A DNA stretch of 64,000 nucleotides from Halobacteria archaeon (GTDB taxonomy: Archaea; Halobacteriota; Syntropharchaeia; JACQPP01): assembly GCA_038869515.1 (NCBI GenBank), contig JAWCQZ010000003.1, positions 126,884-190,883 on the forward strand. The letters run 5' to 3'. Below, piece after piece: positions 34,431 to 38,157 of the stretch (position 1 is the first letter of the stretch; every line of letters starts with the position of its first letter). The notes beneath the pieces are model-generated. The model was not told the origin of the DNA. It did not search any database and was given only the letters and a program-made list of their open reading frames with translations. A program made the position numbers and the translations under genes.

Positions 34431-34480
34431 GTGTGAATTCCAGGGGCCGGGGCTTTAAAAGGAAGAGGGATACCCTCCCC

Positions 34481-35236
34481 ATGCGCTGGCGGGCCCTGCC
34501 CCTGCTGCTTCTCCTCGCCCTCCCCACGGCGGGCCTCCGGCTCACCGGCCAGCTCTACGAACTGGGGCCGGGACCCGACCTTCAGCCTGCCACGGAGACC
34601 CTGGTGGTGGAAGCCCGCAGCAACGGGGAGCTTTCGGGCCGGACCGTGGCAAGCCGGGGAGCCTACACCCTCGAACTGGGGCCCGGGGAGTATCGCATCC
34701 TCGCCCTCTCCCCCGCCGGCGAGGTCCGGGCCAGCGAGAACGTGAGCCTCCGGGCCGACGCCCGGCTGGACCTCATTCTCCTCCCCTCCCTCGACCTTCC
34801 GGACCTTCCTCTGAACGAGAGCCTCCTGGGGAACCTGACCCTTCCCGCAGGGAGGGGGGAGAGGAGCCTCCTCTGGGCCGGCGGTGTGGCCGTGGCCGCT
34901 GCGGCTGCGGGCGCGCTCCTGCTCCTCCGGCTCCGGAAGCGGAGGTCCGAGGTCGCGCCTCCGCCCTCGCCGGGGGGCCTCCCGGACGACCTCCAGGCCA
35001 TGCTCCGCGCCCTGGAGCGGGAGGGGGGCCGGACGACCCAGAAGGAGTTGCGGAGGCACCTGGGCTACTCGGAGGCGAAGGTCAGCCTCATGGTCGCCGA
35101 CCTGGAGAACCGCGGGCTCGTCCGGAAGTTCAAGGTGGGGCGGGGCAACATCGTGGTCCTGGAGAAGGGCCCGGAGGGCTCCTCCCAGCCGCCGAAGGCC
35201 CCGCAAAGCGACCGGAAGCAAAATGAAGGGTCGTAA
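34481..35236 (+). CDS. Membrane-tethered winged-helix regulator (signal peptide, extracytoplasmic domain, TM, cytoplasmic wHTH)
   Basis: 251 aa from ATG 34481, about 25 bp after TATA-like CTTTAAAAGG; signal peptide; three N-x-S/T sequons in the N-terminal domain; TM helix followed by RKRRSE; C-terminal wHTH (…TQKELRRHLGYSEAKVSLMVADLENRGLVRKFKVGRGNIVVL…). Confidence 0.6.
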   Translation: MRWRALPLLLLLALPTAGLRLTGQLYELGPGPDLQPATETLVVEARSNGELSGRTVASRGAYTLELGPGEYRILALSPAGEVRASENVSLRADARLDLILLPSLDLPDLPLNESLLGNLTLPAGRGERSLLWAGGVAVAAAAAGALLLLRLRKRRSEVAPPPSPGGLPDDLQAMLRALEREGGRTTQKELRRHLGYSEAKVSLMVADLENRGLVRKFKVGRGNIVVLEKGPEGSSQPPKAPQSDRKQNEGS

Positions 35237-35238
35237 AG

Positions 35239-35268
35239 TTTTTTCGCGCTTGAAGAGTGCGAAAAAAA
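35239..35268 (+). terminator. Hairpin with flanking T/A runs immediately after the preceding stop codon
   Basis: TTTTTTCGC-GCTTGAAGAGT-GCGAAAAAAA; arms are reverse complements. Confidence 0.35.
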
Positions 35269-35486
35269 CGAGGGTCTTTATCCGATTCCCAATGAGAGGC
35301 ATGTCCGGCCATGTCGGACGAGCGGATTCCGAACCGCGAAGCAGCCGCATTCCGGAAGGGCCGGGCGCCGGATTCCCGACCCAAAACCGGCAAGCAGAGC
35401 CGCGTCGCGGGAGGGTCTGTTTGCCCCGACATCTTTAAGCCACTGGGGGGAGATTTCCCCCTGTCAAATGGACGGGAGGTGAGACA

Positions 35487-36812
35487 ATGAATATGAAAAC
35501 CAGCAAGACACTTTTCGCCATTTTCGTCATCACCCTCTTCGCCGCCACCATGGTTCCGGCCCAGGCCCAAGAAACTGCCCGCGAGAAGGCTTCGGAAGAG
35601 GCCAAGGAGCGGACGGCCCGGGAAGCCAAAGAACGCGCAGCCGAGGAGGCCAAGGAACGCGGTCTCGAGCGGGCCAAGGAGATGGCCTCCGAGCGTGGCA
35701 AGGAGATGGGCCTCAAGCGGGCCGAGGAGGCGAAGAAGCGCGCCAGCGAGGCCAGGCAGAAGGCCGCTGAGGCCGGGCAGAAGGCCGCCGAGGCCGAGCA
35801 GAAGGGCGACATCGCCAAGGCCCGGGTCGAAGAGGCCAAGCAGCGCCACGAAGAGGCGCGCGAGAAGGCCCAAGCGGCCATGGAGAGGCTCGAGAACGCC
35901 AAGGACCGCGCCGCCAGCGCCAAGGAACGGCATGATGCCGCCCGTGAGAACGCGAAGGAGTTCCGCGAGAACGCCAAGCAGGCCCACGAGCGGTTCTCCC
36001 AGGCCAAGCAGCGGTTCCAGGAGTTCAAGGGCAAGGCCATCGCGACGGGCAAGGACCGGAAGGCGGCCCTCGAGGCCACCGCCGACGTCCAGGTCGCCGC
36101 CGCGACCGAGGTCCAGTCCACCGTGGACGAGACCGCCGCCGTGACCGAGGAGACGGTCGAAGCTCTCCGGGCCGACAGCGACCTGACCGGGGCGGAGCAG
36201 CAGGAGATTCTGGACGAGTCGGGGGTGCTTGAGGTCGCCCCCGAGGCCGCCTCCGGCAGCGAGGACCTCGGCGCCATCGCCAGCGAGACCGAGGCCGAAA
36301 CCACGACCATCCCCAGCGAACCGGACGAGAAGACCTACAACGAGAAGAAGGAGAAACTCAAGGAGAAACTCGAGAAACTCAAGAAGAAGCACGCCGAACT
36401 CCAGCACAAGCACAAGGCGCACGTCTGCAAAGTGATTTCCGCCAAGATGCTCCACGCCATCAAGAAGGCGCAGAAGTTCGCCGACCGGCTCGAACTGCAG
36501 GGGAAGGACGTGTCCACCCTGCGGGCCAAAATCACCGACGCCATCGCCGAGGCCAAGGACATCGCGAGACTCTGCAGGAGCATCAAGGATGCCAGAGGCG
36601 TGGACGCCATCGTGAGGGAGGTCCAGCCGAAGATTCAGGAACTCCGCAAGAGCCTCCAAGAGGCCTTCGTCCTCCTGAAGCAGCAGGCTGGACTGCCCGC
36701 CGCGAGCCCGAGCCCGTTGCCTCCGGTGACGGCCCCGGCGCCGGCTCCGACCACGGCTCCAGCACCCGCACCTACAACGGCCGCCTCCCCGGCGGCTGCC
36801 GCCTCTCCGTAA
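35487..36812 (+). CDS. Secreted coiled-coil protein with AKER/EEAK repeats and C-terminal Pro/Thr/Ala-rich tail
   Basis: 441 aa; signal peptide (MNMKTSKTLFAIFVITLFAATMVPAQA), long Lys/Glu/Ala/Arg-rich helical repeats, PAPAPTT tail; GGAGGTGA ribosome-binding-like site before the ATG. Confidence 0.65.
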   Translation: MNMKTSKTLFAIFVITLFAATMVPAQAQETAREKASEEAKERTAREAKERAAEEAKERGLERAKEMASERGKEMGLKRAEEAKKRASEARQKAAEAGQKAAEAEQKGDIAKARVEEAKQRHEEAREKAQAAMERLENAKDRAASAKERHDAARENAKEFRENAKQAHERFSQAKQRFQEFKGKAIATGKDRKAALEATADVQVAAATEVQSTVDETAAVTEETVEALRADSDLTGAEQQEILDESGVLEVAPEAASGSEDLGAIASETEAETTTIPSEPDEKTYNEKKEKLKEKLEKLKKKHAELQHKHKAHVCKVISAKMLHAIKKAQKFADRLELQGKDVSTLRAKITDAIAEAKDIARLCRSIKDARGVDAIVREVQPKIQELRKSLQEAFVLLKQQAGLPAASPSPLPPVTAPAPAPTTAPAPAPTTAASPAAAASP

Positions 36813-36815
36813 GCG

Positions 36816-37034
36816 ATGAAAGCAACCCTGTTCATCGTGGCGGCTCTGATGGCCGCGGCCCTCTTGGTCAGCGGGTGCGCGAGCGGCCCCTCGCCCGCCG
36901 TGCCTCCCGCGGCCACCAAGGCCCCGTCGGCCACCGGAGCGAAGGGAATCTCCGCGGACGACGCGAAGACTCTCGAGTCGCTGCTGAACACGACCATCCC
37001 GGACCTTCCAGAACTGCCCGACCTGAGCCTCTGA
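36816..37034 (+). CDS. Small secreted/lipoprotein-like protein
   Basis: 72 aa; signal peptide with lipobox-like LVSGC; 3 bp after the coiled-coil gene. Confidence 0.45.
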   Translation: MKATLFIVAALMAAALLVSGCASGPSPAVPPAATKAPSATGAKGISADDAKTLESLLNTTIPDLPELPDLSL

Positions 37035-37086
37035 CCGGCAGAGGCTCGGGCCCTCCTTTTTTATCCCCTGCGACGCCGAGCGGAGC

Positions 37087-38157
37087 TCAGGCCTGGGTGC
37101 GAGGAATCCAGCCTTTCAGCCGGATGACCGTGTAAACGACCAGGGTGGACACGAACGAGGAGAGGCCCAGCAGGGGTAACCAGAGGGGGCTGCCCCGTTC
37201 CAGGCCGAGGGCCTCGGGCCCGATGGTGGCGAGGGTGTTGGGGGCGAGGAACGCCGTCCCGGCCAGGGCGAGCAGGAACGCCACGTAGGAGATGCGGTTG
37301 TTGAGAATCGTCAACTGATTGTTGTAGATGGACTGGAGGACCTCCAGGCCCGAGGCGAGAACCGTGCTCATCTGCTCGCTCAGGGAGATGTGGCGGTTGA
37401 CCTCCTCGCCCAGGATGGCGACCCTCTGGAGGAGTCGGGGCTCGTCGGTGATGGTTTCCGCGTCGCCGTAGCGCAGGGAGTTGACCACGTCAAGGGTCGC
37501 CCAGAGGGCGTCGAGGTAGGCGATGAGGGCCTGCTTCATCTGGTAGATCTCCTTTCCGACTTCCGGGCGGATGGAGGCGGGCTCGATCAGGAGTTTGCCG
37601 ATTTTTCCCCCCTCCTCCTCGATTTTCCGGAGGCCGGCGAAGTTGCTGTCGTTGTTTTCGTCGAGGATGCGGGTGAGGAAGAGGGTGAGCCGGTCGTTCC
37701 AGGCCAGGCTGGGCTTCAGTTTCTTCATGACGATGTCGGCATACCGGTAGAGGCGCCCCATGCGCCCGATCTCGGGGGAGTGGAGGGTGACGATGAGGCC
37801 TTTCCGCAGGAGGACGAGGAGCGGCGTCACCCTCACCTGGAGAGCGTCGATGCGGACCGCGGGGACGGCGAGACCCAGCTCGGTCTCCAGGTCCTCGTAG
37901 GCGGAGGTGGGGCGGGCGAGGAGGGCGGTGGCCAGGGCCTGGCTGAAGCCGAGGGAGGAGGCCGCGGCGGGGGCCTCCTCTGCCAGATGGTCCAGGGTCA
38001 GGTCGATCCAGGCAATCGAGGCCTGGGAGAGGGCCGCGGAGAAGTCCTGGACCGACTGGCCCGTGAGCTTGAGGGGGCCGTTGGCCCCCAGGGCCACGCA
38101 GAATGCGCGGGGGGGCGGAGCGGGGGCCGACGGAGCCGAAACGGGGGCGCTTGCCAT
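37087..38157 (-). CDS. CorA-like divalent cation transporter (MIT superfamily); canonical GMN motif not evident
   Basis: 356 aa; cytoplasmic N-terminal domain plus two C-terminal TM helices in CorA arrangement; pore motif reads APN rather than GMN. Confidence 0.6.
   Translation of the reverse strand: MASAPVSAPSAPAPPPRAFCVALGANGPLKLTGQSVQDFSAALSQASIAWIDLTLDHLAEEAPAAASSLGFSQALATALLARPTSAYEDLETELGLAVPAVRIDALQVRVTPLLVLLRKGLIVTLHSPEIGRMGRLYRYADIVMKKLKPSLAWNDRLTLFLTRILDENNDSNFAGLRKIEEEGGKIGKLLIEPASIRPEVGKEIYQMKQALIAYLDALWATLDVVNSLRYGDAETITDEPRLLQRVAILGEEVNRHISLSEQMSTVLASGLEVLQSIYNNQLTILNNRISYVAFLLALAGTAFLAPNTLATIGPEALGLERGSPLWLPLLGLSSFVSTLVVYTVIRLKGWIPRTQA

Follow-up and report, generated by a model that had tools for sequence, protein, structure and literature searches.

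The subject of this report is a group of three genes in a 64,000-nucleotide stretch of DNA from a Halobacteria archaeon (contig JAWCQZ010000003.1; hereafter the window), which has a G+C content of approximately 70% and whose sequence is clearly archaeal. The genes lie on the same strand between positions 34481 and 37034 and encode a transmembrane regulator with a winged helix-turn-helix (wHTH) domain, a secreted helical protein of 441 amino acids (aa) and a 72-aa lipobox protein. The trio is a cassette that is conserved across many archaeal lineages, and it is accompanied by a phased array of CTTTA repeats that is probably the binding site of the regulator. The genes, the parts of their products and the array are listed below (AF2, AlphaFold2; pLDDT, predicted local distance difference test; ORF, open reading frame).

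34481-35236, + strand: regulator gene, 251 aa; the ATG at 34481 lies within a longer, TTG-started ORF
Regulator aa 1-18: predicted signal peptide (MRWR, then ALPLLLLLALP, then a cut between TAG and L), with its h-region at aa 5-15
34535..34780, + strand: extracytoplasmic beta-sandwich of the regulator (aa 19-100; AF2 pLDDT>95)
34781-34867: acidic juxtamembrane linker of the regulator (aa 101-129), carrying 2 of its 3 sequons
34868..34936, + strand: single transmembrane helix of the regulator (aa 130-152), followed by RLRKRRSE on the cytoplasmic side
34970..35161, + strand: cytoplasmic wHTH of the regulator (DUF7343 / MarR_2; aa 164-227; AF2 pLDDT>95)
Regulator aa 228-251: lineage-specific tail
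35202..35239, - strand: repeat array, four GCTTYN units recurring every 10 bp without deviation (ACTTTACGAC CCTTCATTTT GCTTCCGGTC GCTTTGCG)
35487-36812, + strand: helical protein gene, 441 aa
Helical protein aa 1-27: predicted signal peptide (MNMKTSK, then TLFAIFVITLFAATMV, then PAQA before Q), with the cut predicted between AQA and QE
Helical protein aa 28-244: long Lys/Glu/Ala/Arg helices
Helical protein aa 245-280: acidic disordered stretch
Helical protein aa 281-400: three helices with a GKDVSTL motif
Helical protein aa 401-441: disordered Pro/Thr/Ala tail
36816-37034, + strand: lipobox protein gene, 72 aa

The regulator is 100% identical to the NCBI protein 'MAG: MarR family transcriptional regulator [Halobacteria archaeon]', and the 'MarR family' label hides a membrane architecture, which is corrected here. 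Signal peptides were scored from sequence features, namely a basic n-region, a hydrophobic h-region and small residues at positions -3 and -1, all of which are found at the start of the regulator; its N-terminal segment is accordingly predicted to be cleaved. By hydropathy, the sole internal hydrophobic segment is one of 19 aa (aa 130-148), and the three sequons (N87, N112 and N118) are all located on the outside part, with 0 in the cytoplasmic part. N87 belongs to a family-conserved E-N-x-S/T sequon that is present in 25 of 49 homologues. The AF2 model, which was built with these 49 homologues, has a mean pLDDT of 82.8, places the transmembrane helix at aa 130-155 and leaves the linker poorly ordered (pLDDT<50 at aa 122-130). 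The C-terminal half matches Pfam DUF7343 (PF24034) with 66.4 bits (E=2e-18, aa 170-227; gathering cut-off 27.6) and, marginally, MarR_2 (32.5 bits against a cut-off of 27, aa 170-227), and its score of 18.7 bits for MarR PF01047 is under the cut-off of 24.6. Foldseek searches against the PDB likewise pair this half with MarR (SlyA, HosA), ArsR and other wHTH DNA-binding proteins. The N-terminal half pairs with transthyretin-like beta-sandwich domains (E 4e-5 to 8e-4); its match to CarboxypepD_reg PF13620 is weak (17 bits, cut-off 32.3, aa 41-96), and many homologues carry a precomputed PF13620 match. The outside beta-sandwich is presumed to be a sensor or interaction domain.

These topology signals are properties of the family and not chance features of one sequence. 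An N-terminal h-region is found in 48 of the 49 homologues and exactly one internal transmembrane segment in 45; the mean number of Lys plus Arg residues in the 12 positions before the membrane helix is 0.6, against 4.5 after it, and sequons number 1.9 per 100 aa in the outside part compared with 0.15 per 100 aa in the inside part. An earlier note on this DNA had described three same-strand genes, the first of them encoding a protein with a signal peptide, an outside domain with three N-x-S/T sequons, a positive-inside transmembrane helix and a cytoplasmic wHTH, in a topology opposite to that of bacterial ToxR and CadC. The three reading frames are in the ORF list, and the regulator proved to be built as the note had it: the n- and h-regions and the TAG are present, all three sequons precede the one internal hydrophobic segment, RLRKRRSE follows it, the DUF7343 and Foldseek matches identify the wHTH, and the order of domains is the reverse of that in ToxR and CadC.

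A homologue search returned 113 proteins sharing the architecture of the regulator, all with DUF7343, and every named one is archaeal (Methanolobus, Methanohalophilus, Archaeoglobales, Woesearchaeota and Nanoarchaeota). A scan of one genome per species yielded 350 regulator loci, and the regulator profile, run against 1.84 billion representatives of clusters at 50% identity, matched 1,150 of them at E<=1e-30 and 2,029 at E<=1e-10. The family is large, archaea-only and uncharacterised, and it spans euryarchaeal and DPANN lineages. Conservation in its alignment peaks at the putative recognition helix and wing (GGRxTQKELR...YSEAKVSLM...GRGN); the stretch YSEAKVSLM is nearly invariant, and S197, E198, A199, K200 and S202 are invariant. 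Such invariance across phyla fits a conserved target sequence. The family is already catalogued (Pfam DUF7343; NCBI 'MarR family'), and the Pfam entry covers the wHTH only, as a domain of unknown function of which the window regulator is a clear member; the conserved partners and the candidate operator appear to be undescribed. Some matches to the regulator profile (P0119, P0139, P0141 and P0157) have two or three tandem beta-sandwich domains in proteins of 360-460 aa, and one 3,413-aa match holds 33 matching stretches, which indicates that the outside domain is also a repeat module of giant surface proteins.

The 441-aa helical protein has the sequence features of a Sec signal peptide, and its single-sequence model is all-alpha (pLDDT 69) with one helix of about 115 residues. 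A word-index homology search with this protein as the query found only the protein itself, and a search with a 35-sequence alignment found one further protein; low-complexity Lys/Glu words swamp the index. Sequence matches of the helical and small proteins in Pfam, NCBIfam and the PDB (pneumococcal PspA, SMC, designed bundles) were rejected as homologues since they are coiled-coil noise, beyond which no Pfam or NCBIfam model matches the helical family. The Pfam-less neighbours of distant regulators are homologous to one another (phmmer, 1e-16 to 1e-7). A hidden Markov model (HMM) of the helical family, iterated over all ORFs of 90 fetched regulator loci and never including the window lineage, matches the 441-aa protein with E=1.5e-14 (Z=1e5); hence the protein is not an orphan. 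The alignment is collinear over aa 147-399 and brings GKDVSTL into register with the GxDTxxL motif of the family. The window protein therefore has all the features that define the family, namely a signal peptide, a collinear profile match, a DUF7343 neighbour and an upstream CTTTA array. Most members possess an additional C-terminal Gly-rich beta-repeat domain, in place of which the window protein has its Pro/Thr/Ala tail. A second, more divergent helical paralogue in locus L004 (5833-7203; regulator loci are numbered with the prefix L) ends in a PGF-CTERM-like anchor (PGF-pre-PGF, 27.1 bits, cut-off 28), and some members of the helical family may for this reason be archaeosortase-anchored surface proteins.

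The 72-aa protein contains the lipobox LLVSGC at aa 16-21 (pattern [LVI][ASTVI][GAS]C), with the cysteine following LLVSG, and is predicted to be lipidated. It has one sequon (N58) and an acidic C-terminal tail, PDLPELPDLSL. A small gene follows the helical gene in 31 of the 43 loci in which the helical gene adjoins the regulator, and the product carries a lipobox in 25 of these and an uncleaved N-terminal transmembrane anchor in 6; these small anchored proteins always end in an acidic amphipathic tail. The regulator linker (34781-34867) resembles the tail of the small protein (36990-37031), as seen in PSLDLPDLPLNESL compared with IPDLPELPDLSL, or in DLPDLPLNESL compared with DLPELPDLSL. Cognate linker/tail pairs score 25.9 and non-cognate pairs 21.6, with the cognate partner ranking first in 7 of 23 cases. 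This likeness hints at a common extracellular partner, or it may reflect composition only. A similar likeness is seen in L081 (EDAEIANLSEAFEA compared with DSEIADLESDLEEFEA), and likewise in L010, L044 and L087.

Gene linkage was counted starting from the regulator loci, of which 86 are non-redundant. In L001-L003, where the regulators are 64-75% identical to that of the window, the trio is kept, as is the whole neighbourhood including TatD, HflX, CorA and pyruvoyl-dependent arginine decarboxylase (PvlArgDC); since everything in these close relatives is syntenic, the comparison proves nothing about linkage. Distant regulators are more informative (35-41% identical; L004, L008, L010 Methanolobus): their other neighbours differ from those in the window, and the regulator adjoins a Pfam-less protein of 375-505 aa and a protein of 73-93 aa. 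Overall, a helical homologue adjoins the regulator in 43 of the 86 loci, which come from Hadarchaeota, Methanosarcinales (including Methanoperedenaceae and Argoarchaeum), Methanocellaceae, Altiarchaeota, Woesearchaeota and some Archaeoglobi. The genes occur in three orders. In 36 loci they are divergent, with the helical and small genes reading away from the regulator gene; the window, L001-L004 and L040 have the tandem order regulator, helical, small; and L060 has the order helical, small, regulator. Flipping the regulator gene at its position would turn the common divergent order into that of the window. The earlier note had proposed that the three genes may form one module, with a secreted Lys/Glu/Ala/Arg-rich helical protein and a small lipobox protein as the partners of the regulator. 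This proposal is supported: the AQA-type signal peptide and all-alpha model of the one partner and the LVSGC lipobox and acidic C-terminus of the other are present, and the same gene types adjoin one another across archaeal phyla in three orders, with the repeat array in 41 of 43 loci.

Two variations on the cassette were also observed. Several Methanosarcinales have a further gene inserted between the helical and regulator genes (L010, 4465-4746, and the spacers of L044, L055, L072 and L079), whose product is a secreted Cys-/Asp-rich repeat protein of about 90 aa with DGTCDN repeats. In L087 of Methanolobus vulcani (1569-3029, 3709-3746), a second pair of helical and lipoprotein genes lies 1.4 kb from the first and has its own upstream repeat array, so that one regulator may serve two operons there.

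The divergent intergenic regions contain CTTTA direct repeats with a 10-bp period and the consensus AAGCTTTAyAAArCTTTATt, the array consisting of 3-4 RCTTTAY units. Of the 36 divergent loci, 19 have CTTTA-N5-CTTTA in the 160 bp that precede the regulator, against 1 of the 49 loci without a helical gene and 0.5-0.75% of background 160-bp windows. The score of an array was that of its best three units out of four, with the spacing fixed at 10 bp, and both strands of the whole locus were covered. The top array of the locus is located within 700 bp upstream of the helical gene, and antisense to it, in 41 of 43 loci (1.8 expected); among the loci outside motif training the count is 23 of 25 (1.0 expected, binomial p=1.5e-30). 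Median top scores are 21.5 with and 12.3 without a helical gene (Mann-Whitney p=2e-7). The orientation of the array relative to the helical gene is identical in all three gene orders, and in L060 the array is placed upstream of the helical gene and not of the regulator, which together assign it to the promoter of the helical operon. Where the spacer is short (L018, L045 and L004), the array is 10-30 bp upstream of the TATA box of the helical gene; a site just upstream of TATA is the typical position of an archaeal activator. In short-spacer divergent loci, the array also overlaps the -25 region of the regulator itself.

The array of the window is the best in the 64 kb, with a score of 23.4 compared with 18.6 for the next and a maximum of 17.0 in 60 Markov shuffles. 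It covers the last 35 nt of the regulator coding sequence and the stop codon, as is the case in L040, and is located 248 bp upstream of the helical gene. Its half-sites are invariant in L001-L003. The window contains 11 CTTTA[ATC] sites, 4 of which fall between 34453 and 35433. Taken together, these observations suggest that the array is probably the binding site of the regulator, serving as a candidate operator or upstream activating site.

Building on the observed architecture, homology, gene linkage and cis-element, we propose with moderate confidence that a type-I transmembrane one-component regulator controls an operon of helical and anchored envelope proteins through the phased array. 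The signal peptide would place an N-glycosylatable beta-sandwich outside the cell, one helix would cross the membrane, and the wHTH would be held in the cytoplasm at the membrane. Several regulators would then bind head-to-tail to the 3-4 RCTTTAY units, which follow one another at intervals of one helical turn and closely precede the core promoter of the helical operon. This binding would control the operon and would most likely activate it, because the array sits upstream of the TATA box; at divergent loci, its own gene may be a further target of the regulator. An envelope cue would be read by the outside domain or by the acidic juxtamembrane linker. Occupancy of helical protein and anchor could serve as this cue and would then provide feedback of the kind seen in ToxR/ToxS or Cpx/CpxP. 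The roles in 'envelope sensing' and as a 'surface structural protein' that the earlier note had suggested for the trio and its secreted protein are likewise proposals. A broader interpretation, which we hold only tentatively and think rather doubtful, is that the cassette could be a self-contained archaeal envelope-surveillance circuit and the first analogue of bacterial Cpx or ToxRS-type systems. The acidic tail of the small protein would keep the helical protein at the membrane, where the latter would dock on the outside domain of the regulator or on its look-alike linker. Envelope damage would cause the docked complex to be lost or titrated, which would switch the membrane-bound wHTH at the phased CTTTA array.

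Several observations weigh against control of the helical operon by the regulator through the array. Approximately half of the regulator loci, mostly from Archaeoglobaceae, lack both a helical gene and an array in their vicinity. Given the similarity of the repeat unit to an archaeal TATA box, another factor or the TATA-binding protein itself could bind the array. The window array overlaps coding sequence, and this is a partial confounder of its conservation in close relatives. The regulator has its own TATA box and, in this window only, a T-run 3' of its stop codon, which probably place it outside the operon of the other two genes. It should also be noted that the single-sequence model of the helical protein is low in confidence (predicted template modelling score, pTM, 0.28), that nothing in the analysis points to a signal, and that a literature search for DUF7343 returned no papers and no experimental study of any family member.

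Other explanations of the same locus were considered. One is that the three genes are unrelated neighbours whose adjacency stems from local synteny only, as the shared neighbourhood of L001-L003 would allow; the recurrence of the trio in distant phyla, with differing other neighbours, in three gene orders and with a common cis-element, effectively refutes this. An alternative that we regard as unlikely keeps the cassette intact and lets the regulator act after regulated proteolysis, following a logic like that of anti-sigma factors or SREBP: an outside cue would lead to cleavage within or near the membrane, and the soluble wHTH would then bind the array. In the window protein, the transmembrane helix has a high Ala and Gly content (WAGGVAVAAAAAGALLLL), which is favourable to intramembrane cleavage, and the juxtamembrane linker is disordered at aa 122-130. 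However, this Ala/Gly richness is not conserved in the family alignment, no locus examined has a linked protease gene, and ToxR and CadC can act from the membrane (PMC10269533).

We give an equally low chance to the possibility that the DUF7343 protein is a structural membrane adaptor of an extracellular complex of the helical and anchored proteins, with the wHTH serving protein contacts or non-specific nucleoid tethering and the array being read by another factor or by the basal machinery. The linkage is a sign of functional association and not of regulation, the repeat unit is TATA-like, and the likeness of linker and tail hints at common extracellular partners. In contrast, the wHTH matches DNA-binding folds of the MarR/ArsR type and its putative recognition helix is the best-conserved part of the protein, and regulators without an adjacent helical gene keep this helix, which fits DNA targets elsewhere. 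The invariant recognition helix and the cassette-linked array lend indirect support to the sequence-specific DNA binding and the transcriptional control from the membrane that are proposed for the regulator.

Transmembrane transcription regulators form an established class: 1,384 have been predicted across 367 archaeal genomes, and ArnR is the only characterised archaeal one listed (PMC10269533). The window regulator fits the definition of Demey et al. 2023 (PMC10269533), having a predicted DNA-binding domain and at least one transmembrane region. ToxR/ToxS, TcpP/TcpH, VtrA/VtrC and CadC are alike in being single-pass proteins whose outside domain is linked to a cytoplasmic winged helix acting at the membrane, and the 'co-component' systems of the ToxR/ToxS type also encode a small membrane-anchored partner alongside. 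ToxR binds AT-rich pentamer direct repeats with a 10-bp period, TNAAA-N5-TNAAA (PMC8517210), to which the cassette array corresponds as TAAAG-N5-TAAAG on the complementary strand. In contrast to ToxR and CadC, the cassette regulator has its sensor first and its DNA-binding domain last, in type-I and not type-II topology, and its wHTH is of the MarR/ArsR-like DUF7343 kind and not the OmpR-type Trans_reg_C; with no Trans_reg_C match in the Pfam scan and a reversed domain order in the AF2 model, it does not belong to their family. Its sensor is a transthyretin-like beta-sandwich and the system is archaeal. The partners are a secreted helical protein and an acidic anchored peptide, and not a lipocalin-like protein.

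ArnR/ArnR1 of Sulfolobus acidocaldarius are likewise archaeal membrane-bound one-component regulators of a cell-surface structure. ArnR has an N-terminal helix-turn-helix, a HAMP-like region, C-terminal transmembrane helices and almost no outside domain, and no sequence relationship between ArnR/ArnR1 and the cassette regulator was detected. The Cpx system (sensor CpxA, the periplasmic helical inhibitor CpxP, which the system itself controls, and lipoprotein NlpE) shares the parts list of a sensor, a secreted helical protein and a lipoprotein; there is no homology, the cassette is one-component and not a histidine kinase with a response regulator, and its feedback is hypothetical. The helical protein has no LTXXQ motif and no match to Pfam LTXXQ, and hence does not belong to CpxP/Spy. 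MarR proteins are soluble dimers in which dimerisation helices flank the wHTH and form the ligand pocket, whereas the cassette regulator has only the wHTH core of about 60 aa, fused to a transmembrane helix and an outside domain with no flanking dimerisation helices modelled, and its candidate site is a direct-repeat array and not a palindrome. It is therefore not a canonical MarR protein. A literature search found no paper on the cassette, the cis-element or the helical partner family.

Signal transduction across the archaeal membrane is poorly understood, and we know of no described archaeal envelope-stress pathway. If the surveillance interpretation were true, the condition of the surface layer would feed directly into the cell's own transcription. 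Because the family is large, its parts are defined and its candidate operator is precise, the hypothesis is directly testable with the 90-aa soluble domain or in cultivated Methanolobus, Methanococcoides or Methanohalophilus. Two protein families without annotation gain a context in the process.

Further features of the locus concern its transcription signals:

34452..34461, + strand: nearly palindromic TATA-like box GCTTTAAAAG (unit score 13.1 bits), with the regulator ATG some 25 nt downstream and the ATG of the divergent TatD gene (34430) 26 nt away
35237..35486, + strand: intergenic region of 250 bp, 83% identical across four genomes in which the flanking proteins are 55-75% identical
35275-35282: TATA-like TCTTTATC in the spacer before the helical gene
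35432-35439: TATA-like TCTTTAAG in the same spacer
35445-35461: inverted repeat GGGGGG-AGATTT-CCCCC
35475-35482: Shine-Dalgarno sequence GGAGGTGA
37022..37062, + strand: GC-rich hairpin followed by a T-run, the likely terminator of the helical/lipoprotein operon, common to the convergent CorA gene

The distance of the TATA-like box from the regulator ATG implies a leaderless or short-leader transcript, and TTTAA[AG] is found at the same distance from the regulator start in 4 related genomes. It is possible that 34431-34480 is one bidirectional promoter element for two leaderless genes, the regulator and TatD. The lipoprotein gene starts 3 nt past the helical stop, a gap so short that the two genes are presumably co-transcribed. 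From these signals, the likely transcription units are the regulator alone and the helical and lipoprotein genes together, probably with separate promoters. A sigma-70 promoter scan of the window found nothing, the sigma-70 model being irrelevant for an archaeon.

The spacer before the helical gene holds the blocks CCGGCCATGTCGGACGAG and GCCGGATTCCC, which are invariant across the four genomes. Its proximal block ATCTTTAAGCC, the hairpin, GACAAATG and the Shine-Dalgarno sequence are also found in L040, where the sequence of the hairpin differs. RNAalifold gives the spacer a stable fold of -59 kcal/mol, with only 2 compensatory pairs among 4 sequences, and 35237-35486 has no Rfam match; the spacer may be a long structured 5' leader or a small RNA. 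Two candidates in this region were rejected. A 59-aa ORF at 35311-35490 stays open in all four genomes, yet its frame changes from lineage to lineage through indels, and its spurious presence is due to high G+C. A palindromic operator common to both promoters (GAGGGATACCCTC, GGGGGAGATTTCCCCC) fails because the spacings differ, and L040 keeps the position of the hairpin only. Helical genes of Hadarchaeota have a conserved GC-rich leader inside an AT-rich spacer.

The three genes are flanked by those for PvlArgDC, ribosomal protein S15, a DHH/RecJ-like protein, TatD, HflX and CorA. The gene for the CorA-like Mg2+ transporter (37087-38157) adjoins the cassette in convergent orientation, and in L004, whose regulator is 41% identical, a CorA-like gene (3928-4995) lies directly upstream of the cassette on the same strand. 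This adjacency in the window and L004 may represent lineage synteny or a functional hint.

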